A stretch of 64,000 nt of DNA from the NCBI GenBank assembly GCA_902464275.1, contig CABQIK010000002.1:80485-144484 (forward strand). The letters are read 5' to 3'. This document shows, piece after piece, positions 731 through 59,352 of the stretch. The DNA comes from an uncultured Alphaproteobacteria bacterium. GTDB taxonomy: Bacteria > Pseudomonadota > Alphaproteobacteria > RF32 > CAG-239. The notes under the pieces are model-generated. The model was given only the letters and a program-made list of their open reading frames with translations, was not told where the DNA came from and did not search any database. A program made the position numbers and the translations under genes. Position 1 is the first letter of the stretch. Each line of letters begins with the position of its first letter.

Positions 731-739
731 GGAGATACA

Positions 740-3304: not shown

Positions 3305-3309
3305 CATGA

Positions 3310-5209: not shown

Positions 5210-5213
5210 ATAA

Positions 5214-10290: not shown

Positions 10291-10301
10291 GAGAGGTTTA
10301 A

Positions 10302-12177: not shown

Positions 12178-12209
12178 AAAAACCACTCTTTTTGCAAGAG
12201 TGGTTTTTT
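12178..12209 (+). terminator. Rho-independent terminator (13-bp stem)
   Basis: AAAAACCACTCTT-tttgc-AAGAGTGGTTTTT followed by T. Confidence 0.8.
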
Positions 12210-12374
12210 ATTATCCGCTGAGACCAAAACTTTATAATTTTTATAAAATCGGAAATTTCTCAAAATGCGCAAATATAGTTATCACACGGCGGTAAAATTT
12301 AGCTTGAAATTTTATGCTCAAAAGAGTATAAGGCTTTATATTTGTTAAACAACCCCATTCGTCGGAGATGCAAC

Positions 12375-13220: not shown

Positions 13221-13242
13221 TGAAAAACGCTTTCACGCTTTA

Positions 13243-13301
13243 AAATACAACTTATGCACAGCACGGACTCGTAAATATTGCAAAAAAAAAACGCGTGATA
13301 A
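13243..13301 (+). promoter_or_regulatory. Pilin-cassette copy 1 (upstream blocks only), in front of a glycosyltransferase gene
   Basis: AATACAACTTATGCACAGCACGGACTCGTAAATATTGCAAAAAAAAAACGCG matches the cassettes at 19741, 31261, 48712, 57681 and 58595. It is followed by TGaTAATAT (an extended -10-like element). Confidence 0.7.
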
Positions 13302-13353
13302 TATTTTTTCAAAAGTAAACATTTTAAGAAAGTTTGTTTCATAGAGAAGTGAA

Positions 13354-14346: not shown

Positions 14347-15311
14347 TGAAAACAATTCTTGTAACCGGAGGGACCGGCTTTCTCGGGTCAAATCTTTGCA
14401 CTCGCCTGATTAATGAAGGCAATCGGGTGATTTGTGTAGATAATAACTACACAGGACGGATGAGCAATGTCAGCTCTATTCTCAATCATCCGAATTTTCG
14501 GTTTATTAAGCATGATGTTTGCAATCCTCTGGACGTTGATGACGAGAAGATTGACCAAATTTATAATATGGCTTGTCCGGCATCTCCTCCGGCTTATCAG
14601 GGCAGTTATTCCATCAAGACCACCAAGACCTGTGTTTTAGGCGCTATCAACATGTTGGAACTGGCTAAAAAACACCACGCCACCATTTTACAAACCTCAA
14701 CTTCTGAAGTTTATGGCGAGCCGTTGGTTCATCCGCAGGTAGAAAGCTATCGCGGCAATGTCAATCCTGATGGTATTCGCGCTTGTTATGATGAGGGCAA
14801 ACGCTGCGCCGAAAGTTTGTTCTTTGACTATTGGCGGCATGAGGGTGTGGATATTAAGGTTATTCGCATTTTTAATACTTACGGTCCCAATATGGATCCA
14901 AATGACGGACGCGTGGTGTCAAACTTTATCTGTCAGGCGCTTTCGGGGCAAGATATTACCATTTATGGCGATGGACACCAGACACGCTCATTTTGCTATG
15001 TTGACGATTTGATTGAAGCCATGATTCGGATGATGAACAGTCCGAAAGACTTTACCGGACCGGTAAACACCGGTAACCCCGGGGAATTTACAATTAAGGA
15101 GTTGGCGGAAATGGTTGTTGCTAAAATCGGCGGAAAATCTAAAGTTGTTTACAAGGATTTACCCTCAGACGACCCAACACAACGCCGTCCTGATATTACT
15201 TTGGCAAAAAACAAACTCGGCTGGGAACCCAAAATTAAACTCAGTGAAGGTTTAGACAGGACTATTGAATATTTCAAAACTCAAATTAATCTATTTAGGA
15301 AGGCTATGTAA
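14346..15311 (+). CDS. UDP-glucuronate decarboxylase (UDP-xylose synthase-type SDR)
   Basis: [16 protein letters not shown] Rossmann motif and YDEGKR catalytic motif. ATG 14346 overlaps the preceding stop (TAATG). Confidence 0.85.
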
Positions 15312-15312
15312 T

Positions 15313-16650: not shown

Positions 16651-16653
16651 AAA

Positions 16654-19600
16654 ATGAATTTTGACTATATTTGTAATCTTAATTTACCGACAGATGAGTA
16701 TGTTTCTGCTTTACAAGATTGGTTTATGAAACAAACTAAAAAGTATTTAAACATAGAAAACCCAACGACATTTAACGAAAAAATACAATGGTTAAAACTT
16801 TACGATTCAACACCATTAAAAGCTCAAACTACAGACAAATACCTCGTAAGAGATTGGGTTAAGAAAAAAATTGGTGAAGAATATCTTATTCCTTTACTAG
16901 GAGTATATAATAGTTTCGATGAGATCGATTTTGATAGTCTTCCAAATAAGTTTGTTATAAAAACAAATCATAGTAGCGGTTGGAATTGTGTCGTGACTAA
17001 CAAGAAGAATATAAATATAGATGAATTACGAGCCAAATTTAATTTATGGCTAAATACTAATTTTGCATTTATGTTTGGCTTTGAACTCCACTATAAAGAT
17101 ATAAAACCAAAAATTATTATTGAAAAATTTATCCAAAATAAATCCGGTATACTCTATGATTACAAATTTTGGTGTTTTAATGGAGAGCCTAAATATATTC
17201 AATTCCGAGATGATTGGAAAGCTGATTTAAAGATGGCTTTTTTTGATACCGAATGGAATAAACAAGAATTTCATTACGACCATCCGTTATATGAAAAAGA
17301 TTTACCAAAACCAGATAATTTATCTGAAATGTTAGACATTGCAAAGAAGTTATGTAAAGGATTTATGTTTGTTTGTGTTGATTTATATCGTTTAGATAAT
17401 GGCAAAATTTATTTTGGAGAAATGACCTATACTCGTTCTTCGGGAATAGCAAATTGGCAACCTGAGGAATGGAACAAAAAACTTGGAGAAATGATTAAAT
17501 TACCAAAAAACAAAGAGGAAATTATGAAAAAATGTAACTACAAAATTACTTATGAACCGAAGATTTCCGTCATAATACCTGTATATAATGTAGAAAAATA
17601 TCTGCCGAGATGCTTGGATTCGGTTATAAATCAAACATTGAAAGATATTGAAATTATCTGCATAAATGATGAATCTCCTGATAAGTGCAATCAAATTTTG
17701 ACAGAATATGCAAAACAAGATAAACGTATTATTGTTTTAAACCAAAAAAACAGCGGACAAGGAAGTGCGCGTAATCGTGGCTTAGAAGTCGCAAAAGGCA
17801 AGTATATCCAATTTTTGGATTCAGACGATTTTTATCAACCAAATTGCTGTGAAGAAATGTATAATATTATGGAAAAATACTCTGATGTGGATGTTGCTTG
17901 CTTTGATACTAATATTATTTACGAATCTTTCGAGGATAAAAAAGAAGAAGATGCATCGTATTTTAAAATGAATTTTTCAGGAATACAAAAAAACAAACCA
18001 AGTATGATTAGAAAATTAGATTGCAATTGTTGGAATAAAATTTTTCGAAAATCTTTTATTGACGAGTATGGTTTACGTTTTCCAGAGAAATTACATTTTG
18101 AAGATGTTGCTTTTTATTGGTTTTGGTTATCAAAATCTAAAAAAATTTATTTTTACAATAAAAAACTCACTAATTATATAAGAAGAAAAGGAAGTTTTCT
18201 AGGCGAAATATACACAAAGTCTAGTACACATATTTTCGAGATGTTTCACGTTTATGAGCTGATTTATACCGATCTTATAAAAAATAAAAAATTTGATAAT
18301 TACAAAGAAATGTTCTTACAACAGTATCTCAACAATTTCCGTTGGTTAAGGAATTGTTTTTCACATAATGTTACCCAAGAAAAGAGAAAATTAATTGACA
18401 AATGTTCAGTTTTTCTACAAACATGTGACATTAATCATTTGGAACTTTCATCTAGCGATAAAAAGTGTTTCGATAATATTATTAGCAAAAACTACTATTA
18501 TTTTGATGCTTATAATAATCATGAAATCGAAGAAGCTTTTCCTGTTTTTCCAAAAGATAGTATCAATATAGTCTTTTCTACTGATAATAATTATATTCCG
18601 TATTTGGCGGTAGCCATTTCTTCTATTATCGAAAATAGTTCGCCGGAGAATAACTATGATATAATTATTTTATATCAAGCTGTTTATGAATATCAAAAAC
18701 GGTTTATTTTATCAATGGTTGAAAAACATCAAAATATTTCTATACGTTTCTTTGATATGACACAATATATTAAAAATTTTGGTCTAGACAAGCTGTGTAC
18801 ACTCAACCATATCACACTATCAGCTTATTTCCGTTTATTTGTAGGGCAAATCTTTACAGAGTATAAGAAAATTTTATATTTAGATTGTGATTTGATAGTT
18901 ACAACTGATATAGCTCAATTATATCACTTAGATATCGGCAATTATCCGATTGCAGCTGCATTAGATACAACCATTAGCCATTCTCTTGTCGTTGGAGGAT
19001 TAAATACCAATGCATGGACAGCTTTTAGAAAATATATGTCAGAAACACTGAATTTTACAAGCCAAACAAAATATTTCAACTCAGGCGTCATGATTATTGA
19101 CATTGAAAAATTTAATGAAATGGATTTAGATTATTTAATCGATTTAGCTCAACGCAACAATAAGTTTTTCCATGATCAAAATGTTTTGAACGCTGCATTT
19201 GAAGGTAATTATTTCGAATTGTCACCAACGTGGAATTTTCAGTGGAATATTAAATTCCATAGTACGGATTATAAGTACGTTTTGTCACCAGATCTTCTTG
19301 CTTTTTATGAAGATCCTAGTATTCAGGCTAACATTGTTCACTACACCTCTCATGAAAAGCCATGGAAAAATCCCCACCATACATTTGCCAATATTTGGTG
19401 GGAGTATGCACGAAAAACGCCTTTTTATGAAATTTTCTTGAAAGATTTAAATTGCAACAAAATGGTGGCATCAGCATCAGACATAAATAAATCTCTTCTG
19501 TTGCAGATTTTATCATATAAAAAAGATAAACGGCGTTATTACCGGTATAAAATTCTTTCCAAAATAACCTTTGGTAATATGCGTAAATATTATAAACAAA

Positions 19601-19665
19601 AAAGAAAAGAACTAAAAGCATATCTTAAAAATATAGAAAGAATTATGAGAAATGAACAATCTTGA
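16654..19665 (+). CDS. Three-domain fusion: TupA-like ATP-grasp + GT2 + GT8 glycosyltransferase
   Basis: 1003 aa. N-terminal PTTFNEKIQWLKLYD (TupA-like ATP-grasp). Central ISVIIPVYN / INDESPD / LDSDD (GT2). C-terminal FSTDNNY / YLDCDLIV / NSGVMII / HYTSHEKPW (GT8). Confidence 0.8.
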   Translation: MNFDYICNLNLPTDEYVSALQDWFMKQTKKYLNIENPTTFNEKIQWLKLYDSTPLKAQTTDKYLVRDWVKKKIGEEYLIPLLGVYNSFDEIDFDSLPNKFVIKTNHSSGWNCVVTNKKNINIDELRAKFNLWLNTNFAFMFGFELHYKDIKPKIIIEKFIQNKSGILYDYKFWCFNGEPKYIQFRDDWKADLKMAFFDTEWNKQEFHYDHPLYEKDLPKPDNLSEMLDIAKKLCKGFMFVCVDLYRLDNGKIYFGEMTYTRSSGIANWQPEEWNKKLGEMIKLPKNKEEIMKKCNYKITYEPKISVIIPVYNVEKYLPRCLDSVINQTLKDIEIICINDESPDKCNQILTEYAKQDKRIIVLNQKNSGQGSARNRGLEVAKGKYIQFLDSDDFYQPNCCEEMYNIMEKYSDVDVACFDTNIIYESFEDKKEEDASYFKMNFSGIQKNKPSMIRKLDCNCWNKIFRKSFIDEYGLRFPEKLHFEDVAFYWFWLSKSKKIYFYNKKLTNYIRRKGSFLGEIYTKSSTHIFEMFHVYELIYTDLIKNKKFDNYKEMFLQQYLNNFRWLRNCFSHNVTQEKRKLIDKCSVFLQTCDINHLELSSSDKKCFDNIISKNYYYFDAYNNHEIEEAFPVFPKDSINIVFSTDNNYIPYLAVAISSIIENSSPENNYDIIILYQAVYEYQKRFILSMVEKHQNISIRFFDMTQYIKNFGLDKLCTLNHITLSAYFRLFVGQIFTEYKKILYLDCDLIVTTDIAQLYHLDIGNYPIAAALDTTISHSLVVGGLNTNAWTAFRKYMSETLNFTSQTKYFNSGVMIIDIEKFNEMDLDYLIDLAQRNNKFFHDQNVLNAAFEGNYFELSPTWNFQWNIKFHSTDYKYVLSPDLLAFYEDPSIQANIVHYTSHEKPWKNPHHTFANIWWEYARKTPFYEIFLKDLNCNKMVASASDINKSLLLQILSYKKDKRRYYRYKILSKITFGNMRKYYKQKRKELKAYLKNIERIMRNEQS

Positions 19666-19740
19666 ATTATATTTTCTCACGCCAAAACTTTCGGCGGTGA
19701 CGGATTGTGATGCAACCACCCCGCCTTCGGCACTTCTTAA

Positions 19741-19861
19741 TAGGGTGAAGTTTTTGCATTGTGCCAATACAACTTATGCACAGCGCTGACTCGTAAATAT
19801 TGCAAAAAAAAAACGCGAGCTAAAATCTTCTCAAACGTAACAATTTGAGGAGATTTTAGCT
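19741..19861 (+). promoter_or_regulatory. Pilin-cassette copy 2 (full length: extended upstream block, A10, -10-like hexamer, SD-burying inverted repeat)
   Basis: TAGGGT..TTTTGCATTGTGCCAATACAACTTATGCACAGCGCTGACTCGTAAATATTGCA(10)CGCGAGCTAAAATCTTCTCAAA-loop-TTTGAGGAGATTTTAGCT, then ATG. Confidence 0.8.
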
Positions 19862-20464
19862 ATGAAATCAGAAAACGGGCGGTCTATGGTGGAAATGCTT
19901 GGCGTTTTAGCAATTATTGGTGTCTTATCGGTCGGCGCGATTGCCGGATACAGCAAGGCGATGATGAAATATCGGCTCAATAAGCAAGCGGACCAACTCA
20001 GCTGGTTATTAAACGTATTATACCGCTATAAAGATATGTTCGGACACAGTAAAGGCTACTTTGTGCCTTACTTAAAAACACTTAATGAAATTCCGCAAGA
20101 GATGATTAAAGCTAATGACAGCCATATTTATGATACTTTCGGATTTTTATACTACATAAATACCGATAACTGCACTGATGAATTTTGCAGAGCATCTACT
20201 CTTCTTATTCAGTCGCCGACTAATTACAAAAATTTTGATGTATGCCATAATATTTTTGAAACAGCCAAAGCCTTTTCTACGCAGCTTTATTATTTTAGTG
20301 CTTGGTCCGGTGAAGCGGGCGGGTTAGATTACCTTTATGGTGATACTTATTGTTCGTCCGTCCGTAAATGTTTAAAAGATTTATCCCAAAATGATATGTA
20401 TGAAATTTGTAAAAACTGTGCCGAAAAAAGCTGTAATTTTTATTTTAAGTATGAAATTAAATAA
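19862..20464 (+). CDS. Prepilin-type (class III signal peptide) pilin-like protein, paralogue 1
   Basis: 200 aa. MKSENG-RSMVEMLGVLAIIGVLSVGAIAGY has Gly-1 and Glu+5 followed by a hydrophobic helix. Conserved VCHNIFETAKA core and C-terminal Cys pairs. Confidence 0.8.
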   Translation: MKSENGRSMVEMLGVLAIIGVLSVGAIAGYSKAMMKYRLNKQADQLSWLLNVLYRYKDMFGHSKGYFVPYLKTLNEIPQEMIKANDSHIYDTFGFLYYINTDNCTDEFCRASTLLIQSPTNYKNFDVCHNIFETAKAFSTQLYYFSAWSGEAGGLDYLYGDTYCSSVRKCLKDLSQNDMYEICKNCAEKSCNFYFKYEIK

Positions 20465-24544: not shown

Positions 24545-25237
24545 ATGACAGAAAAAAATACAGCAGAGATTAAAAAAACTGATATTAAAGCCAGCTGCTT
24601 AAAAACACTCAAGAAATTTACAGCCTTCTTAAAAGCGGATATTAAAGGCAGCGATTTCAAAACGCTCAAAGGTCTTATAACCGCTTTACGTTATTTGTTG
24701 TATATCGTGCTTTATGCTAAATTTTTGTATATGATGAATATTTTAACTCATGACACATTGGATACAGATTTTTATGAGGCGTGTGTTCCTGTCGGCTTTT
24801 TTAACATTTATTCGGCGGAACCTGTTACCTATTTTACCATTTTCAGCTTTTTAGAAAGCTACGCGCATGTAAATCTTGCCGGAGATATGCATTTATGCCT
24901 GCCAAGCGCGTATTATTTTGTGGTTTTGGCATGGTATTTTCTTTTGTTTTATACCGCATTTAAAATCTTGTCATTTTGCGTATTGTGGAAAAAATTACCT
25001 TGGAAGTATGTAATTTTAGAAATTTGCGGATTGATAATTTGTCTTTCATATCATGACTTTATGGTTTTAATTCAATATGGAAGATACGGCTTAATTCCGT
25101 TTTACCTGCTCGGGACTATAATTTGCACATTTTATATGTGGGTATTTTTACTGATAGGTTGGGCGATATTAAAATTCATCGGTTATATATATCATTTGCT
25201 TGTAGCACCGCTGATCAGCCGGCTTAGAAGTAAATAG
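24545..25237 (+). CDS. Polytopic membrane protein, tandem paralogue A
   Basis: 230 aa with ~5 hydrophobic segments. The C-terminal 44 aa are identical to paralogue B. Confidence 0.7.
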   Translation: MTEKNTAEIKKTDIKASCLKTLKKFTAFLKADIKGSDFKTLKGLITALRYLLYIVLYAKFLYMMNILTHDTLDTDFYEACVPVGFFNIYSAEPVTYFTIFSFLESYAHVNLAGDMHLCLPSAYYFVVLAWYFLLFYTAFKILSFCVLWKKLPWKYVILEICGLIICLSYHDFMVLIQYGRYGLIPFYLLGTIICTFYMWVFLLIGWAILKFIGYIYHLLVAPLISRLRSK

Positions 25238-25275
25238 TATTATCATACTTAGCACAGTTTATAAATGGTTTTAAA

Positions 25276-25842
25276 ATGACAGAAGAAAACAAAGATAATA
25301 ACAGATTAAAAACGCGCCAAGAGTTTATAACCGTTTTACATTATTTATTGTATATCGTGCTTTACGGCGCTTTTGTGTATATAATATTAAGTTTAAATCA
25401 TGACGATTTTATAGATTGGCATGCGACGTGTACTTCTGTCGGCAGTTTTAACATTAATTCAGCAGACCCAATCACCGACTTTACCATTTTCAGTTTTTTA
25501 GATAACACTGCAAACTTAAATTTCGCAGGAGAGATACATTTATGCTTACCGAAAATGTTCGGATTTATGCTTTTAGTTTGGTATTTTTTTGTATTGTATA
25601 TGATATTTAAAACCTTATCATTTTCTATGTTGCCACCCCAAAAGCGGCGAATGTTTGACATTTTAGAAATTTGCGGATTGATAATTTGTCTTTCGTATCA
25701 TGATTTTATGGTTTTAATTCAATACGGAAGATACGGTTTAATTCCGTTTTATCTGCTCGGGACTATAATTTGCACTTTTTATATGTGGGTAATAATGCTG
25801 TTAAGGTGGATAATATTTAAATTGTTTGCCAAACACTATTGA
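25276..25842 (+). CDS. Polytopic membrane protein, tandem paralogue B
   Basis: 188 aa. Shares YLLYIVLY... and ILEICGLIICLSYHDFMVLIQYGRYGLIPFYLLGTIICTFYMWV with paralogue A. Confidence 0.7.
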   Translation: MTEENKDNNRLKTRQEFITVLHYLLYIVLYGAFVYIILSLNHDDFIDWHATCTSVGSFNINSADPITDFTIFSFLDNTANLNFAGEIHLCLPKMFGFMLLVWYFFVLYMIFKTLSFSMLPPQKRRMFDILEICGLIICLSYHDFMVLIQYGRYGLIPFYLLGTIICTFYMWVIMLLRWIIFKLFAKHY

Positions 25843-27003: not shown

Positions 27004-27193
27004 ATAAAATTCTCCTTATGGATTCTCAACAAATAGACGCTTGCGCGTCCGGTTAAATGTATAGCCGCAAAAAACTTTCTGCGGCAAGGACAAGCGTTAA
27101 TATAGCGCAAAACTTTATTTTTGCAAGCATTTTTTTATAAAGACTATTTTAACAAATTAAGTTTATGCTTGAGGTATATGTTATAAGGATTTT

Positions 27194-29061: not shown

Positions 29062-31185
29062 ATGAAAATGTTAAAGCCGTCTAAACTTTTACTTTTTTCT
29101 TTGATAACAGCCGTTATCACCGGACTTGCCGGGTTTGACGGCGTTTCGGCAGCCTCACGGCAGTCGGCTTACACCGTGCGCGATATGATGGCGCGCCGCG
29201 GTCGTCCGCCCAAGAGCGTGACCAAGCCCGCCAAACGCACCACTCCTAAAGTTATCCGCAAATCGGCCGCGGAAGGCTCTTATACCAATGTCGGAACCAG
29301 TAATGCCGCCGGTTTTGAACAAACCGTATTGCTTAACAAAGACGGGAGCTTGTTTCCGGGCGGTCCGTGCGTTGAGTGCCAAACCGGTCCGATTGATAAA
29401 GACGGCAGTTTGTTTCCGGGCGGCTCCTGTGTAAATTGTCAGACCGGCCCGCTCATTGACACCGGCCCCTGCATTGATTGTCAGACCGGCCCGCTTATTG
29501 ACACCGGTCCGTGCGTAAACTGCGAAAAGCCCAAACCGCTTATTGCCAATTATGCCATTCCTTATACTCCGTATATTTATCAGTCGGTGGAGCGTAATTG
29601 CTGCGCCATGGCTCCGCTTTATTTGGAACATGTTGACTTTAACCTTGCCAATGTGCCGAATAACGGACCGGAAAAACTCGGTAATTATCGTTTCAGAATT
29701 TTCGGGTGCCGCCGTTATGATAAAGAAGCCATATTAAACCGCGGTCGCATAATGGAAAAAGATATGAACTTCTCGCAAATTTTTGAAGAAGTTACCGGCG
29801 ATTGCTACAATCTGGTTAAAATGCCTGATGATTTGTGCCTGCAAACCACTCCTTCTCCGTTGCCTGAATATATTTTAACTGCGGAAATCACCAACTTCTT
29901 TATGAACGTGTGCGACGGTTATGACTGGCAAGACGTTCAAAAGCAAAACGCGCGCACCGGTTCGGCTGAAATGACGGTTACGTGGCGCTTGACCAACCTT
30001 ACCAAGACCAAAGTTTTGTGGGAAGGGCAAACCACCGGTTACAGCGACTTAGACAACGGCGCTGCCAATGGCGAAATTAAGCTAGTGGAAGACGCTTTTG
30101 CCGATGCCGCAAGCAATTTAAGCACCATGCCGGGATTTGAAGATCAGCTTATGGTTCGCTTAACGCCGGAAGAATTAACCGAACAGCGCAACGCCTTAAT
30201 TGATGAAGAAATTGCCTTAAATCCGGCCAAATGCCGTTTTGAGGAAGAGCTTACTCAGGTTAAAAACTGCGAAATAAGCCGTCCGGAAAGCGATATTAAC
30301 CAATGCCCGGCTTATATTGAGCAAAAATCAGGCGTGGTTTCAGATTATGAATTGTTTGATAATGTGGTGGTTGAAAACAGCGGCGTTGTTTCAGACGGCG
30401 ATTGCGCCAAAGTTGACGACACTTGGGTTGACATGCAGCAAAACACCACTTCATTTGACAGTCTGTGCATTGTTGACAGACCTCCGTATGAAACATTAAG
30501 TCCCGAAAATTTATATAAAGTCAGAGCCTCTGTGGTTGAAATTAACGGTAACGCCGGTAAAAAAGGCGCCGGTCTGATTATTTCAGAGTCGTTTGTTTTA
30601 ACTTCAGCCGATTTGGTTGATAAAACTAACAATCATTACCAAATTAAAACCATTAACGGCAAAGAGCTGACCGGTCATGCGGTACGCGTAAATCCGGCTA
30701 AAAACATTGCGTTGATTATGCTGGATACACCTACCGAATATACCCCGCTTTCATTGAATTTAGACTTGCCGAAAGTAAACCAAAGCGGCTTTATGGTGCT
30801 TGGCGTGCTTGACGTGCCGACTTTCAGCGATGGCGAAAACTACATTGACAACAGCGGTAAAGTTGCCGGATACCGTTATTCGGAAGACAAAGGTTCAGAA
30901 ATCATGATGAACACTTTTGTACAAAATGTTACCATCGGCGGCATTTTGATTGATGCCAACGGTACCGTTAACGGGGTGGCTCATTCCGGTAAAAAGACTG
31001 ACAGCGGTATGGATTTGTTCCTGCCAACCGAAACCGCTTTGCGCAGCGTCGGGCTCTCAATTTGTGAAAAACTTTACGCCAAACCGAGTCCGTGGCAGCA
31101 AACGGTTTATAAACCGGTGACCGAAAAAATTATGGCTCCGGCGCCTAAAGCTCCTGAAGCCATGAAAGAAAAAGACCGCAAATAA
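29062..31185 (+). CDS. Secreted protein: Cys-rich CxxCQTGP repeats + central domain + trypsin-like C-terminal domain that appears to lack the catalytic triad
   Basis: 707 aa with a signal peptide. The C-terminal GAGLIISESFVLTSADLV / KNIALIML / VTIGGILID aligns by eye with the TxAHV / DIALL / GDSGGP positions, with H, D and S all replaced. Confidence 0.6.
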   Translation: MKMLKPSKLLLFSLITAVITGLAGFDGVSAASRQSAYTVRDMMARRGRPPKSVTKPAKRTTPKVIRKSAAEGSYTNVGTSNAAGFEQTVLLNKDGSLFPGGPCVECQTGPIDKDGSLFPGGSCVNCQTGPLIDTGPCIDCQTGPLIDTGPCVNCEKPKPLIANYAIPYTPYIYQSVERNCCAMAPLYLEHVDFNLANVPNNGPEKLGNYRFRIFGCRRYDKEAILNRGRIMEKDMNFSQIFEEVTGDCYNLVKMPDDLCLQTTPSPLPEYILTAEITNFFMNVCDGYDWQDVQKQNARTGSAEMTVTWRLTNLTKTKVLWEGQTTGYSDLDNGAANGEIKLVEDAFADAASNLSTMPGFEDQLMVRLTPEELTEQRNALIDEEIALNPAKCRFEEELTQVKNCEISRPESDINQCPAYIEQKSGVVSDYELFDNVVVENSGVVSDGDCAKVDDTWVDMQQNTTSFDSLCIVDRPPYETLSPENLYKVRASVVEINGNAGKKGAGLIISESFVLTSADLVDKTNNHYQIKTINGKELTGHAVRVNPAKNIALIMLDTPTEYTPLSLNLDLPKVNQSGFMVLGVLDVPTFSDGENYIDNSGKVAGYRYSEDKGSEIMMNTFVQNVTIGGILIDANGTVNGVAHSGKKTDSGMDLFLPTETALRSVGLSICEKLYAKPSPWQQTVYKPVTEKIMAPAPKAPEAMKEKDRK
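29338..29523 (+). repeat. In-frame degenerate tandem repeats encoding Cys-rich units
   Basis: KDGSLFPGGxCVxCQTGPID occurs twice, followed by TGPC(I/V)(D/N)C(Q/E).. units. Confidence 0.8.
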
Positions 31186-31260: not shown

Positions 31261-31380
31261 TAGGGTTTATTTTGCATTGTGCCAATACAACTTATGCACA
31301 GCGCTGACTCGTAAATATTGCAAAAAAAAAACGCGAGATAAAATCTTCTCAAAACTAACTTTTTGAGAGGATTTTAGCTC
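31261..31380 (+). promoter_or_regulatory. Pilin-cassette copy 3 (full length)
   Basis: Same blocks as copy 2. Inverted repeat GAGATAAAATCTTCTCAAAA / TTTTGAGAGGATTTTAGCTC abuts the ATG at 31381. Confidence 0.8.
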
Positions 31381-32016
31381 ATGTATACACAATCCGGAAG
31401 AAGTATGGTTGAGATGCTCGGAGTTCTGGCGATTATCGGGGTGCTGTCAGTTGGCGCTATTGCCGGTTACGGAAAAGCTATGTTCAAGTACAAACTTAAC
31501 AAACAAACCGAACAATTAAATCAGGTTATCGGTGCCATCGTGCGCTATAAAAGCAGTTTACTGCTTAATCCCAATCCGGCGGATGATACCAATCTAAGCG
31601 ACTTTCAATTAGTGTCATTACTTAAAAAGCTCGGTGAAATTCCAAAAGAGATGTATACATCCAGTGATGTATACATCAAAGATGCTTTCGGCACTCAATA
31701 TTATGTTTATAATCGTAACACTCATAAGAACATGGTTTTTTTACGAACTCGTAGCATGGATCGTAATGACAGCTCTTTTCAGATTTGTAAAAATTTATAC
31801 TTAATCGCCAAAGAATGGCACCAAGAATTACATTCTATACGTGTTGCAGCTTATAAAGGCGATGATTTTGACAGCCAAGGAACATATTGCGGCGATAACA
31901 CTCTAAATTCATATTGTTTTAAACGCATTAAAGATTTACGATTAACCGACCTTGACGATATTTGCCGAACCGCCGCTGAAGAGCAAGGCTCATATTCGGT
32001 TATGTTATATTTTTAA
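31381..32016 (+). CDS. Prepilin-type pilin-like protein, paralogue 2
   Basis: 211 aa. MYTQSG-RSMVEMLGVLAIIGVLSVGAIAGY, plus the ICKNLYLIAKE core and C-terminal Cys residues. Confidence 0.8.
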   Translation: MYTQSGRSMVEMLGVLAIIGVLSVGAIAGYGKAMFKYKLNKQTEQLNQVIGAIVRYKSSLLLNPNPADDTNLSDFQLVSLLKKLGEIPKEMYTSSDVYIKDAFGTQYYVYNRNTHKNMVFLRTRSMDRNDSSFQICKNLYLIAKEWHQELHSIRVAAYKGDDFDSQGTYCGDNTLNSYCFKRIKDLRLTDLDDICRTAAEEQGSYSVMLYF

Positions 32017-36558: not shown

Positions 36559-37371
36559 CTATAACCAAATTTTGTTGTTATCGGTTTGTTTGATAACTTC
36601 AGTCCATTCATTGAGCTTTTTACCTTTGAGGTCATATAATGAAGTGGTGTATTTAATGGCCGGAACGTTTTTGCTCGGGGTATCAAACCAATCAGCTTCA
36701 GTGGCAAGGTAATAATCAGCATCGGCCAAATTGTCGGTTACGGTAAAAGTGTATGAATTGGAAAGGTTGCGTTTTAAGGTATTAACGCCGTTTTCAATAC
36801 CGGCCGGCAAATCAGTGCTTTTAACAACCGGATTTTGAACATAAAGTTTTACATTCGGGCGACTTTGATAAAGCGAGGATGTGTCTTGCAACATACGGCT
36901 TAACGTGCGGTTAGCAGCCAACTTATAAGCTTCAGGCATAGCCGGAATTATAACTTTTGCCGGAGCGGGTTCCGCCTGATATGAAACCTGCTGATTTTTA
37001 AATGTTTGGCAGTTACCGCAGCCGCAATTTAAGGTTTGACCGTCCGTTTCGCACTCACGGCGCGGTTTGGGTTGAGCAACGGTTTCAGTTACGCGCGGGC
37101 GCAAAACTTCGCGGCAGGGATCGGGACGATATGCGCAGCGGCACGGGTTAACCTCAGTTTTAACTTCCTGACAAGGGCAAGGTTTCGGTTCAGCCTTTTC
37201 ACACGGAGAAGCCTTAACTTCCTGACACGGACAAGGCGCCGGTTCGGCCTTAACTTCCTGACAAGCGCACGGCGCGGGTTCGGCCGCAACCTGAGCTTTT
37301 TCGGTTTGACAATTTTTATGGGCACAAGCGGCTAATGTAACAACCAATGCCAAAGCCATAAGTTTTTTCAT
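36559..37371 (-). CDS. Lipoprotein with Cys/Pro-rich PCxCQEVK repeats
   Basis: Lipobox LAAC. Repeats are AEPAPCACQEVK, AEPAPCPCQEVK and AEPKPCPCQEVK. C-terminal globular domain. Confidence 0.7.
   Translation of the reverse strand: MKKLMALALVVTLAACAHKNCQTEKAQVAAEPAPCACQEVKAEPAPCPCQEVKASPCEKAEPKPCPCQEVKTEVNPCRCAYRPDPCREVLRPRVTETVAQPKPRRECETDGQTLNCGCGNCQTFKNQQVSYQAEPAPAKVIIPAMPEAYKLAANRTLSRMLQDTSSLYQSRPNVKLYVQNPVVKSTDLPAGIENGVNTLKRNLSNSYTFTVTDNLADADYYLATEADWFDTPSKNVPAIKYTTSLYDLKGKKLNEWTEVIKQTDNNKIWL
37135..37284 (-). repeat. In-frame repeats encoding (A)EPxPCxCQEVK units
   Basis: Three near-identical units are visible in the translation. Confidence 0.75.
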
Positions 37372-43775: not shown

Positions 43776-46700
43776 ATGGCAAAGAACGCTAAAGTTAAAA
43801 TGGATTTGAATGAAGCTGTTACGATTTTGCAGGGTGAAACTATCGCCAAAGCAAAAGGCGCGGACGGCTATTCGGCGGCAGAAGTAAAAGAGGCATTAAA
43901 GATTGTTAAAGCGCAAGATCCGGACAATCAGGTTTTGTATCAGTATATGCTTATTACCGTGTTTCAACCGGTTAAAGCGCAAGATCCGGACAATCAGGTT
44001 TTGCATGTTTATAATGAACAGGCTAAAAATGCCCAAAATACCGCGGGCAAAACAAATGCCGAAACAACTTCTAAAACCGGTAAAAAAACCGGCGCCAAAA
44101 AAGCGGCTAAACCTGCTAAAAGCGCAAACAAAGCTCAGGTTTTGCGTTCTGATGCTTCCGACAATAAAAAACCGGATTTTAACGAGGCCGTCACCATTTT
44201 GCAAGGCGAGGCTATTGCCAGAGCCAAAGGCGCAGAAGGTTTTTCAAAGGCTGAAGTTGAAGAAGCTCTTAAAATTGTTAAGGAGCAAGACCCTGACAAT
44301 AAGGTATTAAACATTTACATGCAACAAGCAAAAAATGCCGAAAAAGCCGAGAGTATCCCTGTAAAAAATGAAAATTCCGCTGATAAAAAGGCTGAAAATA
44401 AAAAGGCTGAAAACAAGCTTGAAAACGTTTCTGCGCAAAATGCCGAAAATCGGCAGGTTTTGCGTCCGGTTCCTCCGGCAGAGTCCATGAGCTTAGACGA
44501 GGCGGTTGCCATTTTGCAAGGCGAGGCTATCGCGGCCTTAAACGGCGCCGACGGATTTTCGCAAAGCAAAATTCAGGAAGCCTTGAAAGTTGTGCAGGAT
44601 AAAGACCCGAATCATCCGGCTTTAAAAGCTTATCAGGAACAGCTTGCCAACTTTGAAAAAGCCAACAAGCTGCAATCAAACAATCCGGTAATTTACGCGC
44701 AAAACTCAGAAGACACTGACTTTACGCTCAGAGGCTACACTTTTGATAAGTTTACCGAAAGCTCTGAAAATGACGACATTCGCGAATATATTGGCAATAC
44801 GGAGCTTACTGACAGCGTCAGCGGCAAAGTTTTGGAAGCTCAGGAACGCAAAGATTATCTTAACCTGATTTTTGAAGGCGCTAAGTTAAAAACCGAAACC
44901 TCATTAATAGGTGATGAAAAGTACGCCAAATTAAGCAATGCCCAGAAAATTAAGACGATTAAAGCAGAGCTTAAAACTATTTTCTTTGCTGACTTTGCCC
45001 GCACTGCCATTGCGTCAGATTTAGAAAAGCCAACCACTTTGGAGCAACGTATCGGCTCTAAAGAATATAAAGATTATATTCTGCGTCAATCACAAAAAGC
45101 TTCGGGCATTATGCAAAAAATTGTCAGCGGCGGTCAAAAGATTAAAATTAAAACCGACGCCATTTTGGCTTCATGCGCCGATACCGCGGCTCAGACCGAA
45201 CAATATATTAAAGGCCTGAGATTAAAAGCTCAGCAAGCTGTTGCGCAAGCTTCGCAATCGGCTAAAAACGGAGCGCAAAAAGCTTCAGACAATATACGTA
45301 ATGATTTTAACAAAATAGCCGACCGCTTGCAGAAACATAAAAACAATTTTGAGCAGCTGGCTAACAATGTTTCAAAAAATCGTTATCAAATTTTCAAGAA
45401 TATTAAAGGAAGTTTCAGTGATAACAAAATTAAATTGTTTGGCAATGTTGCCGCTAACGCCGCATTCGGTTATGTGACGGCGGCTGCCGCTTCCGGCGCG
45501 GTTGCCGGCGCAGCTGCTCCGGTATTGGTTCCGGCCGTTGCCGCTTATGCGGTATATCATGCCGCCGGTTCATTGGTATATCCGGTTGTGGCGGAAATTC
45601 GCAAAATCAACCGTCAAAAACGAGAAGCCGGTGAAGCGACCTTGCCGTTTATGCAAGCCTTAAAGCAAGCTTGGAAAAATAAAACCGAGTCTCGTAAAAA
45701 CAGACGCACCTATATTGTCAGCGTCTTAATCAACACCGCTGTTGCCGCCGGTGGTTTTGCATGGTTGAAAGACGGTTTGGAAGCCGCCGATGCCGCCGCA
45801 GCGTTGACTGACGGAGTTAAAGACGGCTTGAACGTTACTTTAGCATCCAGCATTGCCGAAACTCGTCATGCTATCAGTATGGGACGCGCAGGCGCCGCCA
45901 CCATGGCGCAGTTAGCAGATGCAGGTGTTGCTTACGGCGTTTCAGTTGCCGACCCGCAAAACTTAGAGAAAAAAGCCGAGGCTAAACAAACCGCGATTGC
46001 CGCTTTGATCGGTATGGGCTTAAACGCCGCCGCTCAGGGCTTGAGTTCGGCATTGCAAAATATTAACACCGCTAACGGCGAAATATCAGATGTGCTCTCA
46101 TCAGATAATGGCACCCCTGCTCCGGTTAACAATCCGGTTAATGACGATGGAATTGTAAATCCGGTAACCGGCGCTCCGGTTAACAATCCGGAAGCAAATG
46201 ATGTTGCCCCCGCTCCGAGTGCAGGCGATAATGTTACTGATATTGCCGACACCACTAATGACGCCTCTGTTGCTCCTAAACCAAACTTTGTTAAAGGTTT
46301 GTGGAATAAGTGGTTTGGCGGCAGAAGTAATGATGAAGCCCCTTCAACCCCGATTGTCGGCGACGGCAGAAACCCTGACGGAAGTTGGCAGGTTTCAGAC
46401 GGAAACGGCGATGCCGTTAATATTGTGGATAATGGCGGCAACGCAGGCGATGTTGATGTTGCAACCAATGGCGGAAATGTTCCTGCCGGTTTATTCCCGA
46501 GAGAATATAATCAGGATATGGGCATCAGCCAAAGAGAATATAACACTTTGGTTAATACCACTGAAGGCACGCTTAAAGCCGCAACCGGCGAAGAAGTTAC
46601 TTTGGACAGAGCTTACAGCAATCTCAGCGGCTCTATGGATCAATTTAAAGGCAGAACCGAAGAAGAAATTATGTACAAATATAACCGCTTGTATGCCTTT

Positions 46701-47595: not shown

Positions 47596-48411
47596 TTATT
47601 TAGTGCCGAGATTAATAAATGGCACGGTGTTGCCCATCATGTATTGAGGTAATTCACCGTTCCACTTCAGCACAGCCTCATATTCTGTGAGGCCTTTGTT
47701 TTTGGCCAAAGCCTGAGATTTAATCTCCATGGCTTCAGCCTCAGCCTTGGCGGCAATAACCGTTTGCTGCGCTTCCTCTTGAATCCTTTTTGTATTGTTG
47801 ACGGCCTCCTGAGCTTTTTGCTCGGCAATGACCTTGTCTTCAATCGCCTTTTCAAAATTATCGCTATAGTCTATATTAATAAACATAAACGAGATATTTT
47901 GAATGAATTCAGAATTCATTTTTTCACGCAAGCATGCGATTACCGCATCGGTAGCAACATCACGGTTGCTGACCAACTCTTGGGCCGGCCATTTACCAAT
48001 GACATCTCTGAGTGCCGCATCCAAAATCGGTGTGACGATCTTAGACTCATAATCCATGCCGATTGTCTCGTACAAAACGTTGACTTTGGTAGGATTGAGC
48101 TCATAGGTGAACGCAAACTTCATTTCTGCAGTCTGCATATCACTGGTATAAGTTGCTCCCGGCGCCTCAAACTTTTTGGTTCTGACGTCCATTTCCACCA
48201 TACGAGAGATAAACGGCCACTTAAAGCCGATACCGTTCGTATAAGAACGTGGAGCCACCTTGCCGAGTGTTACCAGAACACCGCGGTGTCCAGGCGAGAC
48301 CACGTAAATGGAACTGGCAATCAGCATCAACATGAACAGAGATATAACTCCGATGATGGACCACTTCACGATAGTCTTGGTTCTCTTCTGCTGCTCTTCG
48401 TAATAACCCAT
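47596..48411 (-). CDS. SPFH/Band 7 (prohibitin-like) membrane protein
   Basis: N-terminal TM helix, VVSPGHRGVLVTLGKV, and a C-terminal coiled-coil with AEQKAQEA. Confidence 0.88.
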   Translation of the reverse strand: MGYYEEQQKRTKTIVKWSIIGVISLFMLMLIASSIYVVSPGHRGVLVTLGKVAPRSYTNGIGFKWPFISRMVEMDVRTKKFEAPGATYTSDMQTAEMKFAFTYELNPTKVNVLYETIGMDYESKIVTPILDAALRDVIGKWPAQELVSNRDVATDAVIACLREKMNSEFIQNISFMFINIDYSDNFEKAIEDKVIAEQKAQEAVNNTKRIQEEAQQTVIAAKAEAEAMEIKSQALAKNKGLTEYEAVLKWNGELPQYMMGNTVPFINLGTK

Positions 48412-48711
48412 AATTTAATATTTTTAATTAATGCTTCAGCACAACCGGTTAAACATACGGTTTGATTTAATGTTGATTGTTCTTTTTTCATAAAACAAAA
48501 TTTTTGATTCTAATCTGATCCCTAAAGTACGCAACTTTATACCTGAAACAGGCGGGCGGTCTCGCAGAAGACTCTTTATCAAAAATTTCTGGTATCAGCG
48601 CGTTGGTAAACCAAACACGGTAATACTTTCATTATAAATAAGTTACAACAACAGTTAAATAAACTTTGTATATAGTTTTACAAAAATCACAATACTTTTT
48701 TGTCTAATATT

Positions 48712-48810
48712 AAATACAACTTATACACAGCACGGACTCGTAAATATTGCAAAAAAAAAAGCGCGAGCTAAAATCTTCTCAAAACTAACTTTTTGAGAGG
48801 ATTTTAGCTC
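48712..48810 (+). promoter_or_regulatory. Pilin-cassette copy 4
   Basis: AAATACAACTTATACACAGCACGGACTCGTAAATATTGCA(10)GCGCGAGCTAAAAT... The 20-bp inverted repeat 48765-48784 / 48791-48810 has one G-U position and abuts the ATG. Confidence 0.8.
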
Positions 48811-49581
48811 ATGTATACATATTTTAGCCGCTTTTTACACAACACTCTGTCACGCACCGGTATAAAAGAGGTGTTCACCTCTTCTTTGTCACTCTCCGAC
48901 TTGATCGGAGAGTCCAGGTCAAACCAAGTAGCTAATTTGTCCCACCTGGATTATCGGGTCAAGCCCGATAATGACAACATAGAGAATGCTGGACGTAGTA
49001 TGGTAGAAATGCTTGGGGTGTTGGCGATTATCGGGGTGCTGTCAGTCGGCGCTATCAGCGGTTACTCTAAGGCAATGTTCAAGTATAAATTAAATAAACA
49101 ATCAGAGCAGTTAAGCACCATCATTAACGCCTCAATTCGTTATTATAATGATTTGCGGCTAATAAGTTCTGAAGGTGAATACAATTTAATCCCGATACTT
49201 GATAAACTCGGTGAAATTCCAAAAGAAATGATAGTACAAAATAATAATTGGATTCTTAAAGATGTGTTTGACACCACCATAAACATTTATTATCACAATA
49301 CAAACTATCTGGGCATAACTGATTTGATTGATAAAAGCAGTAGAAGTATGGAAATTTGCCGCAATATTATTATCACCGCAAAAGAAAATCACGCCGATAT
49401 TTACCAAATATTTTTCCGCAATGATTATAGCGATAAACAAGAATATTCACGCCACATAAGCGGGGACAAAATATGTGGTCCGGCAAATGTTTGTTTGAAA
49501 GATATGAGCATAAAACAAATTGATGACGCTTGCAGTTTTTGCGCCTCTGATAAATGTTGGCTTTACATTCAGCTCATGTAA
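48811..49581 (+). CDS. Prepilin-type pilin-like protein, paralogue 3, with 57-codon insertion in the leader peptide
   Basis: 256 aa. MYT + 57 inserted codons + GRSMVEMLGVLAIIGVLSVGAISGY. The downstream part is a normal family member (EICRNIIITAKEN, C-terminal Cys residues). May be impaired in processing. Confidence 0.6.
   Translation: MYTYFSRFLHNTLSRTGIKEVFTSSLSLSDLIGESRSNQVANLSHLDYRVKPDNDNIENAGRSMVEMLGVLAIIGVLSVGAISGYSKAMFKYKLNKQSEQLSTIINASIRYYNDLRLISSEGEYNLIPILDKLGEIPKEMIVQNNNWILKDVFDTTINIYYHNTNYLGITDLIDKSSRSMEICRNIIITAKENHADIYQIFFRNDYSDKQEYSRHISGDKICGPANVCLKDMSIKQIDDACSFCASDKCWLYIQLM
48820..48990 (+). mobile_element. 171-nt in-frame, hairpin-rich insertion (REP/REPIN- or RPE-like small element candidate)
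   Basis: It replaces the 6 nt CAATCC of paralogue 2. Three hairpins at 48866-48883, 48891-48913 and 48951-48971; the second and third have mutually complementary loops (CTTGA / TCAAG). Confidence 0.4.
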
Positions 49582-57640: not shown

Positions 57641-57680
57641 AAAAATCCTAACTATTTACGAGTAAAATGGTTTTAATCAG

Positions 57681-57770
57681 AATACAACTTATGCACAACA
57701 TAGACTCGTAAATATTGCAAAAAAAAAACGGCGTCTATAATGTTTTATTATAGCACTTTAGAGAGGATTT
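57681..57770 (+). promoter_or_regulatory. Pilin-cassette copy 5 (divergent 3' part)
   Basis: AATACAACTTATGCACAACATAGACTCGTAAATATTGCA(10)CGGCGTCTATAATGTTTTATTATAG. A TATAAT at the same offset lies inside a different 7-bp hairpin. SD GAGAGGA. Confidence 0.75.
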
Positions 57771-57773
57771 TTG

Positions 57774-58493
57774 ATGATAAATACACAATCAGGAAGAAGT
57801 ATGGTGGAGATGCTCGGCGTTTTGGCGATTATCGGGGTCTTATCCGTGGGGGCGATTGCCGGATACAGCAAGGCAATGATGAAATACAAACTCAATAAAC
57901 ATGCTGAGCAGATGAATCAGATTATGGCGGCAATCAGTCGTCACACCGGTTCTTTTAAGAATATCCAATACGAAAGTTTTGTTACAGGCGCATTTACTAA
58001 AATGGGAGAATTTCCAAGTGAAATGTCTCAAGACAATAATACTGTAAGTGTTTATGATATTTTTAAAAATCGTATATCTGTTGTATATTCTCCAAAAACT
58101 TCAAGCTCCAACCATAGTGCTCAGAATGAAATCAGGTTAGATTATTATTTATCCACTGACAGCAATACCGCTGTTGAGCTGTGTCGTTCATTGTTTGTTG
58201 CCGCCAAAGAGCAAAGCGGCGAGTTACACCGGATATTTACTACGACTAGCAGTAGTCCAAACGACCAAAACCAATATTACGGCGATAAGTATTGCACTAA
58301 CAACTGCATTAAAAATCTTAGTATGAACACTATCGGCAATATCTGCGCGAATGCTCAAGGTAAATCAAGTAATATCCGAGATAATGACATGGCCGGCGAA
58401 ATGTCATTATCCACCTTCGGATTAAGTATCGGTGGCTCTGATGATACCAGCAACAATATTGATAGCATAAACTTTGTGTGGAAAGCTGACTAA
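57774..58493 (+). CDS. Prepilin-type pilin-like protein, paralogue 4
   Basis: M(I)NTQSG-RSMVEMLGVLAIIGVLSVGAIAGY with the ELCRSLFVAAKEQ core. ATG 57774 (6 nt after GAGAGGA) is preferred over TTG 57771. Confidence 0.8.
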   Translation: MINTQSGRSMVEMLGVLAIIGVLSVGAIAGYSKAMMKYKLNKHAEQMNQIMAAISRHTGSFKNIQYESFVTGAFTKMGEFPSEMSQDNNTVSVYDIFKNRISVVYSPKTSSSNHSAQNEIRLDYYLSTDSNTAVELCRSLFVAAKEQSGELHRIFTTTSSSPNDQNQYYGDKYCTNNCIKNLSMNTIGNICANAQGKSSNIRDNDMAGEMSLSTFGLSIGGSDDTSNNIDSINFVWKAD

Positions 58494-58559: not shown

Positions 58560-58594
58560 GCAATATTTTTTAAATTTGCAACATTTTTGGGTAT

Positions 58595-58689
58595 CCACAA
58601 CTTATACACACCCCGGACTCGTAAATATTGCAAAAAAAAAACGCGAGCTAAAATCTTTTCAAAACAACTAATTTGAGGAGATTTTTATT
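58595..58689 (+). promoter_or_regulatory. Pilin-cassette copy 6
   Basis: CCACAACTTATACACACCCCGGACTCGTAAATATTGCA(10)CGCGAGCTAAAATCTTTTCAAA...TTTGAGGAGATTTTTA, then ATG at 58690. Confidence 0.8.
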
Positions 58690-59352
58690 ATGAAATCAGA
58701 AAACGGCAGAAGTATGGTGGAAATGCTTGGCGTGCTCGCTATTATCGGCGTTTTATCTGTCGGGGCTATCAGCGGATACTCCAAGGCCATGTTTAAGTAT
58801 AAGCTCAACAAACAGGCGGAAAGTTTCAGCATGCTGTTAAATGAGGCGATAATGCTTTTGCCTGATTTAGAGCGTCATTACGGTAAAAACGTTACAACCC
58901 GCAATAACCTGAATGACTTTTTCTATAAAGCCAACCTGTTGCCGGACGGTATGACTTATAATGCGGCGGATAACCGTATTTATGATATATTTAAGAACAA
59001 AATTCTGTTGCATTATACTATGTCTATTCATGGCGACGGCAGCACATCAACGGACTATTATATGGCGATTGAAACGAATCACGCGGGCGGCACAATCAGC
59101 GGGCAAAATAACGAAATTTGCCGCAATATATTTCTTGTCGCCAAAGAAAACGCCCAAAATATTTTAAGTATAGAAATGCGCTCCACCAGAACAGACGGAT
59201 ATTCCACAGTAATATTACGCGGCGGACGTCATCCAACCTCAAACACTTTAAGCAAAGCCTCTATAAAGCAAATTAATGACACGTGCTCTTCATGCAATGC
59301 GGAAAAGGGTTGCGAAATCTTTTTAGTTATAAATGAAGCGCCCAACCCGTAA
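58690..59352 (+). CDS. Prepilin-type pilin-like protein, paralogue 5
   Basis: 220 aa. MKSENG-RSMVEMLGVLAIIGVLSVGAISGY, the EICRNIFLVAKEN core, and C-terminal CSSCNAEKGC. Confidence 0.8.
   Translation: MKSENGRSMVEMLGVLAIIGVLSVGAISGYSKAMFKYKLNKQAESFSMLLNEAIMLLPDLERHYGKNVTTRNNLNDFFYKANLLPDGMTYNAADNRIYDIFKNKILLHYTMSIHGDGSTSTDYYMAIETNHAGGTISGQNNEICRNIFLVAKENAQNILSIEMRSTRTDGYSTVILRGGRHPTSNTLSKASIKQINDTCSSCNAEKGCEIFLVINEAPNP

Follow-up and report, generated by a model that had tools for sequence, protein, structure and literature searches.

The 64,000-nt window analyzed here (positions 80,485 to 144,484 of the forward strand of contig CABQIK010000002.1, from the uncultured alphaproteobacterial assembly GCA_902464275.1) contains a long inverted repeat that ends at the start codon of a gene for a 256-amino-acid prepilin-like protein (48811..49581), in which an N-terminal extension of about 60 residues precedes the motif G/RSMVEMLGVLAIIGVLSVGAI. 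The left (5′) arm of the repeat, GAGCTAAAATCTTCTCAAAA, lies at 48765..48784 and includes TCTTCTC (48774-48780), the complement of a Shine-Dalgarno (SD) sequence and hence referred to as the anti-SD. The right (3′) arm, TTTTGAGAGGATTTTAGCTC (48791..48810), contains the SD itself, GAGAGGA (48795-48801), and its last base adjoins the ATG at 48811. The loop between them is CTAACT (48785..48790), and among related copies of the element it ranges from 5 to 10 nt and varies in sequence as well. These features, and those given below unless stated otherwise, are on the plus strand.

The stem consists of 20 pairs with a single U·G (T48776 opposite G48799). Its plus-strand RNA has a folding energy of −30.6 kcal/mol, compared with a mean of −11.0 kcal/mol (sd 2.7) for dinucleotide shuffles (z = −7.3), and none of 200 shuffles folds as well. 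The 66-nt 5′ regions of 48 other open reading frames (ORFs) of the window, used as a control, average −8.1 kcal/mol (sd 4.5). The hairpin is strong and non-random, and both sequence and fold agree with an earlier note on this DNA that had described a 20-bp repeat with one T-G position, a 6-nt loop and an adjoining ATG. Its minus-strand counterpart folds with −26 kcal/mol. A search of the whole window against Rfam gave no match at the gathering score and none at permissive thresholds either; positions 48650-48900 have sub-threshold matches to generic long hairpins (miRNA precursors) only.

The inverted repeat forms the 3′ third of a cassette of about 105 nt that occurs six times in the window, the copy just described being the fourth. 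From 5′ to 3′ the cassette consists of ACAACTTAT, 10 variable nucleotides, GACTCGTAAATA, TTGC, a tract of A residues, CGCGAGC, TAAAAT, CTTCTCAAA, the loop, TTTGAGRRGATTTT (followed by AGCTC in some copies) and the ATG. Its first part, the upstream block AAATACAACTTATACACAGCACGGACTCGTAAATA at 48712..48746 in copy 4, was recognized by identity among the six window copies and more than 100 copies from metagenome-assembled genomes (MAGs). The block is made up of the two near-invariant sub-blocks and the variable 10-nt stretch that they flank, and it is a possible candidate for an activator or UP-type site.

The window copies differ mainly in the hairpin. Copy 2 (19765..19861) has an 18-bp stem at 19818-19861 (−23.6 kcal/mol) before a pilin-like gene at 19862-20464, and copy 3 (31283..31380) has a long stem at 31335-31380 (−21.5 kcal/mol) before a pilin-like gene at 31381-32016, including the A/G mismatch that the earlier note had seen there. 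That note had also counted copy 6 among those that keep the structure, which is true only in part: in copy 6 (58593..58689, pilin-like gene 58690-59352) the outer 5 bp of the stem are gone and only a 14-bp core remains, at 58650-58685 (−11.8 kcal/mol). Copy 5 (57680..57773, pilin-like gene 57774-58493) carries the separate CTATAAT/ATTATAG hairpin reported for it, in which the −10-like TATAAT (57736-57741) pairs with ATTATA within 57733-57756; its SD lies outside this short hairpin and is not sequestered. Copy 1 (13243..13353) shares the promoter of the other copies, with TAATAT at 13299-13304, lacks any hairpin over its SD, as noted earlier, and stands before an operon at 13354-19665. The genes behind five of the six cassettes encode the prepilin-type N-terminus G/RSMVEMLGVLAIIGVLSVGAI, and these pilin-like proteins match Pfam N_methyl and NCBIfam pseudopilin models, all below cut-off.

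Beyond the window, a scan for exact matches to one 21-mer of the cassette found at least 96 stretches in four species-representative gut MAGs, and in all at least 105 distinct copies are present across four gut MAG species, or about 25 to 35 per genome. The MAGs are labeled Alphaproteobacteria, Proteobacteria and Lachnospiraceae, the last of these being probably wrong. Most copies stand before prepilin-like genes. In addition to this set (lineage 1), lineages 2, 3 and 5 were obtained from contigs encoding more distant homologs. All lineages share a promoter core, which in the contigs outside lineage 1 reads (G)ACTC-N7-TTGC-A9-13-CGGTT-TAnnAT. A scan of metagenomes with AAAAAAAAACGGTTTANNAT for cassettes outside lineage 1 found none among the 120 loci listed, which are chance matches; two unrelated TTTTGC-A9 sites were among the matches listed.

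Within lineage 1, the 14-bp core of the hairpin (AAAAUCUUCUCAAA with UUUGAGGAGAUUUU) is paired in 94 of 95 standard copies. In an alignment of 79 distinct sequences, standard pairs occupy 87% of all cells and approximately 98% of core cells, and sliding the partners by 1 to 3 columns lowers the paired share to 41% to 65%. One-sided changes in the core leave 110 wobble-compatible cells versus 19 unpaired ones, so the observation that imperfect positions are mostly T opposite G, made on the window copies alone, extends to the 79 related sequences. The SD itself occurs in 2 versions, GAGAGGA and GAGGAGA, and both pair with the same UCUUCUC, the position of the U·G shifting between them.

The two strands are not equivalent. 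Of 98 lineage-1 copies, 93 have the more stable fold on the plus strand; the mean energies are −17.9 kcal/mol for plus and −12.8 kcal/mol for minus, where the background plus-minus difference in the window is −1.1. In lineage 2, whose proteins have leaders of the form MKF..GRS, GAUUUCGUUUAAAGUCC pairs with GGAGAUUUUAGAUGAAAUU, a hairpin unlike that of lineage 1 in sequence. Starting within the final 3 nt of the −10 hexamer, its stem extends over both the SD and the AUG, with fold energies of −12 to −18 kcal/mol and z of about −2 to −4. Here the plus strand is better in 12 of 12 copies (−15.95 vs −5.4 kcal/mol), and the minus strand hardly folds because the stem is so rich in G·U pairs. Variant copies change the hexamer together with its downstream complement, as in TATAAT/ATTATA in window copy 5 and TAGAAT/ATTCTA, abutting the SD, in L111 at 10001; in L028 and L035, AAGCTAAAAT pairs with ATTTTAGCTT, again abutting the SD. 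The wobble-type imperfections, the strand asymmetry, the variable loops and the differently built hairpin of lineage 2 argue for selection on a structure in plus-strand RNA, as the earlier note had proposed, and not on a DNA operator. The RNA-level case is built on the difference between the strands, the bias to wobble pairs, the variable loops and the recurrence across lineages rather than on covariation, compared with which strand asymmetry is the stronger evidence.

Pairing also extends outward from the core. In about 78% of lineage-1 copies the outer left arm, CGCGAGCT, has a pairing partner, which is AGCTC ahead of the ATG in some and a box within the first codons in others. The coding-region boxes are used in 27 of 97 copies, often those without AGCTC before the ATG, and consist of TTTTAGCCGC in ..FSRF.. 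leaders and AGCTTGCGG in LAKLA and QSLR leaders. In copy 4, a second complement of the CGCGAGCTAAAAT box lies at 48821..48831, in codons 4-7 (ATTTTAGCCGC). The first codons of three leader classes are complementary to the CGCGAGCTAAAA box 3′ of the A-tract and could form an alternative or enclosing outer stem.

The DNA of the left arm also appears to serve as a promoter. A −35-like hexamer, TTGCAA, is found at 48747..48752 and is invariant in all lineages, and a −10-like hexamer, TAAAAT, lies within the left arm at 48769..48774; a promoter scan gives TTGCAA-16-TAAAAT for copy 4. The −10-like hexamer fits TAnnAT in 115 of 116 copies, with eight variants that differ only at positions 3 and 4 (TAAAAT, TAATAT, TACAAT, TACTAT, TAGAAT, TATAAT, TATGAT and TAAGAT). 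Pairing cannot explain this pattern, because all six positions of the hexamer are equally paired in the hairpin. Constancy of the TAnnAT type is what is expected of sigma-70 −10 hexamers. Judging from this pattern, the left-arm hexamer is probably a real sigma-70 −10 element, in line with the −10-like character assigned to it previously and with its set distance from TTGCAA.

That distance is 15 nt in 82 of 102, 10 of 12 and 3 of 6 copies of three lineage groups, and it is reached in different ways: lineage 1 combines A10 with a 7-nt box, the others A12 with a 5-nt box. This compensation between tract and box argues that the A-tract sits between two promoter elements. Copy 4 has a 16-nt spacer owing to one extra G. 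TTGCAA seems to be a usual −35 element in these organisms. With an A-rich spacer it also occurs at ordinary promoter-like sites, ahead of a tRNA gene (L097, minus strand, ~8450; TTGCAA-N17-TATATT) and of other genes (window 4712-4724 and 27114-27126, minus strand), where the spacers measure 16 to 17 nt and the −10 is TATATT or TACCAT. From sigma-70 geometry, transcription is predicted to start at 48781, the first purine, 7 nt after the −10 and behind the pyrimidine-only CTTCTC.

Other promoter and regulator assignments were set aside. An upstream start of the extracytoplasmic function (ECF) sigma factor type, which the earlier note had considered, would use CAACTT-N15/16-TCGTAA; its CGT is specific to lineage 1, and the other lineages have GACTCTTTAAAATTGC or TCCTTTTAAAGTTGC in its place and keep only (G)ACTC-N7-TTGC, so this part of the note is not supported. 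A sigma-54 reading of GGAC...TTGC fails on inspection, the two elements being 3 nt too far apart and GG lacking conservation, and a CtrA box in the loop (TTAAC) has no TTAA 7 nt upstream.

Because the plus-strand RNA appears to be under selection and the left-arm hexamer behaves like a −10 element, the best reading of the cassette is that its hairpin silences read-through transcripts, so that protein would be made only when the cassette promoter fires. We give this roughly even odds. The plus-strand hairpin would bury the SD of the pilin-like gene, and in the sister lineage the AUG too, while the DNA of the anti-SD arm would overlap the gene's own sigma-70-type promoter, made up of TTGCAA, a 15- to 16-nt A-tract spacer and TAAAAT. 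With a predicted start about 7 nt past the hexamer, at the first A of CAAAA, the lineage-1 mRNA would begin with AAAACUAAC.. and lack the anti-SD UCUUCUC. The gene's own transcripts would then leave the ribosome site free, and transcripts entering from upstream would carry both arms, fold with about −12 to −30 kcal/mol and remain untranslated. The hairpin would in this way insulate translation and make the amount of protein depend on whether the cassette promoter fires. The earlier note had put forward the same division between translatable own transcripts and silent read-through, which we likewise infer and which has an exact documented precedent in phage T4 genes e, soc, 49 and I-TevI (PMC3014915).

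Predicted accessibilities are consistent with such an arrangement. Across 97 lineage-1 leaders, the SD has a median unpaired probability of 0.00 when the RNA is initiated upstream, and the predicted start brings this value to 0.50. Pairing has been kept for nucleotides upstream of that start, which implies that RNAs crossing the promoter must exist and matter. Read-through into the cassettes is plausible; a co-directional ORF lies upstream of five of the six window cassettes, and a terminator-like hairpin is found within 200 nt upstream in only 32 of 99.

Several observations weigh against insulation from read-through or against parts of the argument for it. Formal covariation in lineage 1 is weak, since the copies are so alike. 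Double changes affect 5 pairs and 23 cells; as many pairs are reached in 262 of 500 shuffles, and only the number of cells, matched in 1 of 500, stands out. Lineage 2 has no covariation in its 12 copies, and its outer stem is invariant. Lineages 3 and 5 share the promoter core, but no hairpin reaches significance in them (z about 0). In lineage 2 some of the stem's 5′ strand lies downstream of the predicted start, and the predicted own transcript there keeps a weak stem over the SD of about −5.9 kcal/mol, with the SD unpaired at 0.21 versus 0.14. Copy 4, which has the most perfect stem, stands behind a divergently oriented gene, where read-through is least expected, and cassettes with and without a terminator-like site upstream do not differ in the strength of their hairpins (−17.3 vs −17.4 kcal/mol). 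The modal 15-nt spacer, finally, is shorter than the 16 to 17 nt of most other promoter-like sites of the window; it may reflect low activity, dependence on an activator via the upstream block, or a state biased to OFF, and it leaves the promoter assignment or its usual activity state uncertain.

The main rival, which we regard as unlikely, places the hairpin in a genuine 5′ untranslated region. Transcription would begin ahead of the left arm, within the A-tract or immediately before it, driven by the upstream block, so that all mRNAs would contain the stem over the SD. The hairpin would be opened by a trans-acting factor (a small RNA that pairs with the shared left arm, a helicase, or RNase III cutting the 20-bp helix) or serve as an mRNA-stabilizing 5′ stem-loop. 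Such a leader would account for the pairing that reaches CGCGAGC directly after the A-tract in some 78% of lineage-1 copies, for the approximately 35-nt upstream block, whose conservation is very strong in lineage 1 and partial in lineages 3 and 5, and for a spacer that is suboptimal for sigma-70. However, no convincing upstream promoter is found; the CGT motif is confined to lineage 1, and in lineage 2 conservation ahead of TTGC is limited to about 12 nt. A native leader would also leave unexplained the strict TAnnAT, the invariant TTGCAA and the compensated spacer length, and no free-standing copy of either arm, as a possible opener RNA, is present in the 64-kb window.

A quite improbable alternative is that the repeat has no function of its own and is passively carried along as the cassette is duplicated and gene-converted. 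The copies resemble one another closely, so that conservation alone is weak evidence, and formal covariation is not significant. Against passive carriage, the stems stay paired while loops and flanks vary, variation within the stems is biased to wobble-compatible changes, and the same layout recurs with other sequence in lineage 2 and in several variant copies.

Still less probable is an element acting as DNA, either a palindromic operator that spans −10 to +30 and binds a dimeric repressor, or a cruciform, extruded under supercoiling, in which the −10 is hidden. The repeat does overlap the −10 and start region, the classic position of an operator, arms of 20 bp, rich in AT and 6 nt apart, could be extruded, and the minus strand of copy 4 still folds with −26 kcal/mol. 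But the distance between the arms varies by several nucleotides, with loops of 5 to 10 nt that differ in sequence, which a dimeric DNA-binding protein would not tolerate. The mismatches are nearly all T/G, hence A/C on the other strand, the plus strand is favored (93 of 98 and 12 of 12 copies), and the lineage-2 minus strand barely folds. Complementarity is continuous over 14 to 20 bp instead of being limited to short half-sites, and it persists where the arm sequences change between lineages and variants. The operator that the earlier note had named as its alternative is therefore disfavored.

A role for the minus strand is barely credible. The hairpin followed by GCG and T10 could act as an intrinsic terminator of antisense transcription back through the pilin gene, the T10 run lying 3 nt past the stem on that strand, but a terminator scan of 48400-49000 finds none on either strand, the wobble pairs become A·C mismatches, the T-run of lineage 2 is 8 nt from a minus-strand stem of only about −5 kcal/mol, and lineages 3 and 5 keep the A-tract without the hairpin. 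An intrinsic terminator would need a GC-rich stem directly followed by a U-run; no U-run follows the stem on the plus strand, and on the minus strand the T-run stands apart from a stem that is AT-rich. Least credible of all, and contrary to what the earlier note had entertained, is a fourU- or ROSE-type RNA thermometer that would free the SD once host temperature is reached. The U·G within the UCUU/AGGA pairing is reminiscent of fourU, and pyrimidine stretches pairing AGGA or GGAG through U·G are common to both, but thermometer helices are short, imperfect and melt near 37 to 42 °C. The cassette helix has 14 to 20 uninterrupted pairs and by prediction remains closed beyond 60 °C, with the SD at least 97% paired in silico at 60 °C in copies 2, 4 and 6 (unpaired probability ≤0.03), and a gut metagenome source suggests a near-constant temperature.

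Returning to insulation from read-through, the spacer of the putative promoter adds a second feature. In all lineages the stretch from the −35 to the −10 element includes a homopolymer, as TTGC-A9-13-(CG box)-TAnnAT. Copy 4 has A10 at 48751..48760, and A10 is found in all six window copies (the others at 13282-13291, 19804-19813, 31322-31331, 57719-57728 and 58632-58641). The tract spans 7 to 12 residues in lineage 1 and 9 to 13 in other lineages. Among the lineage-1 copies counted, 83 have A10, 15 have A9, 4 have A11 and 1 has A12; in the other lineages most copies have A12. Between metagenomes the tract differs by 1 A at 3 of 9 loci with otherwise identical flanks (L097/L101, L111/L112 and L233/L234), a difference for which assembly error at homopolymers is a possible cause. 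The copy-4 locus is identical in three further samples and is uninformative on tract variation.

Its position and variability make the A-tract a candidate site of slipped-strand phase variation. Each of the approximately 30 pilin-like genes could then be an independent, closed stochastic switch, in which a hypermutable poly-A tract sets the −35/−10 spacing and the anti-SD arm keeps OFF copies silent under read-through from neighboring housekeeping genes. This extension is doubtful, and we put it forward tentatively. We know of no description, for any cellular surface-protein family, of slipped-strand phase variation coupled genome-wide to translational insulation.

The closest known system is that of phage T4, where RBS-sequestering hairpins (over the ribosome binding site, RBS) precede genes e (lysozyme), soc, 49 and I-TevI and contain a late promoter in their 5′ strand, and where the long transcripts are translated approximately 100-fold less (PMC3014915). 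As in T4, the cassette buries the SD and/or the AUG in a helix and has a promoter, here predicted, in the DNA of the 5′ strand; promoter-proximal transcripts without that strand are translated in T4, and upstream-initiated ones fold and are silent. Unlike the T4 elements, the cassette resides in a cellular chromosome, its promoter is of the sigma-70 type with −35 and −10 elements instead of a gp55 late promoter, and the module recurs about 25 to 35 times per genome before a paralogous pilin-like family. Its promoter spacer also holds a variable poly-A tract, and the cassette is known from sequence alone.

For insertion sequences, Davis, Simons and Kleckner reportedly described in 1985 a fold-back inhibition of read-through transcripts in IS10 and IS50. 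In IS200, an RBS-occluding stem-loop protects against impinging transcription (cited in PMC3196728). With such insertion sequences the cassette shares one pairing arm upstream of its own start, here predicted, so that only external transcripts would hide the ribosome site; a further layer in some elements is a terminator placed upstream, and about one third of cassettes likewise have a terminator-like site there. In contrast to insertion sequences, the cassette is not mobile, having no terminal inverted repeats and no transposase, and it serves a surface or secretion-type protein.

The A-tract has its nearest counterpart in the vlp genes of Mycoplasma hyorhinis, each of which has a poly-A tract in its promoter and is phase-variable (PMC10502178). 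Both are multigene families of surface proteins with a near-identical promoter and an A-run before each gene, and the cassette tract varies in length between copies and, in the assemblies, between samples at one locus. The vlp promoters, however, are not reported to carry an RBS-sequestering hairpin, and for the cassette, switching is only a candidate property.

The class of mechanism has precedents in T4 and insertion sequences; the novelty would lie in its repeated use before a cellular pilin-like family, within a promoter that has a variable poly-A spacer. If this reading is right, a device of phage and insertion sequences, in which translation is set by the promoter of origin, would be used wholesale by a cellular genome for a large surface or secretion family, in bacteria that only gut metagenomes have revealed, which would explain how pilin-like genes dispersed among housekeeping operons can be silenced individually. 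The poly-A tract and hairpin together suggest a mechanism of surface variation in an abundant uncultured gut lineage, and the cassette can be used as a motif to find this regulon in metagenomes.

Many public contigs start or stop inside the cassette (L018, L020, L036, L066, L070, L071, L103, L235 and others); evidently a repeat of about 100 nt breaks short-read assemblies of these genomes. At 4085-4150 of L076, the upstream block, TTGC and A10 are followed directly by CTCCGGTTCGTTTAAGAATCGGAGTTTTT, a terminator-like hairpin between A and T runs. This copy has no −10, SD hairpin or pilin gene and looks like a truncated or recombined cassette.

The genes behind the cassettes are dispersed among housekeeping genes, including uvrB, uvrC, yidC, engB and gap. 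The protein encoded after copy 4 has more than 7,700 relatives, nearly all of them unannotated, and one relative with 72% identity is named pseudopilin PulG by a source. N-terminal extensions of 25 to 70 residues precede G/RSMVEML in many family members (48811-48990 in copy 4; P0003, P0007, P0014 and others), and such long prepilin leaders are unusual. They fall into classes beginning MKSYFSRFLHH.., MFIKKIANWFDLD.., MNNKINQSLR.. and MNLFDFFNFF... Short- and long-leader forms with the same first residues occur within one lineage, for example MKFNELGRSMVEML and MKFNELGRSFFRKMV...GRSMVEML.

Repetition is also seen in the coding regions of the window. Two adjacent paralogous genes at 24545-25842, encoding proteins of 230 and 188 residues, are 74% to 88% identical in DNA including their upstream regions and represent a 647-nt tandem duplication (repeat families D6-D8). 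In-frame repeats are found with a 53-nt unit at 37160-37302, in a minus-strand ORF at 36559-37371; with 60- and 42-nt units at 29320-29504, in an ORF for a trypsin-like peptidase (29062-31185); and with a 43-nt unit at 43905-44319, in a 1244-amino-acid ORF that has no Pfam match. These tandem or dispersed repeats in three coding regions suggest repetitive protein segments.

The operon downstream of copy 1 (13354-19665) encodes a GT2 glycosyltransferase, an NAD-dependent sugar dehydratase/epimerase, a UDP-glucose 6-dehydrogenase and a 1003-amino-acid ATP-grasp/GT2/GT8 protein; these may represent glycosylation functions under common regulation with the pilin-like genes. One MAG copy, L001, also stands before a GT2 gene. 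The G+C content is 30% to 33% over most of positions 1-20000 (39% at 12-16 kb) versus 37% to 46% in 20001-64000. The glycosyltransferase operon falls inside the low-GC part, possibly a polysaccharide or glycosylation island gained by horizontal transfer.

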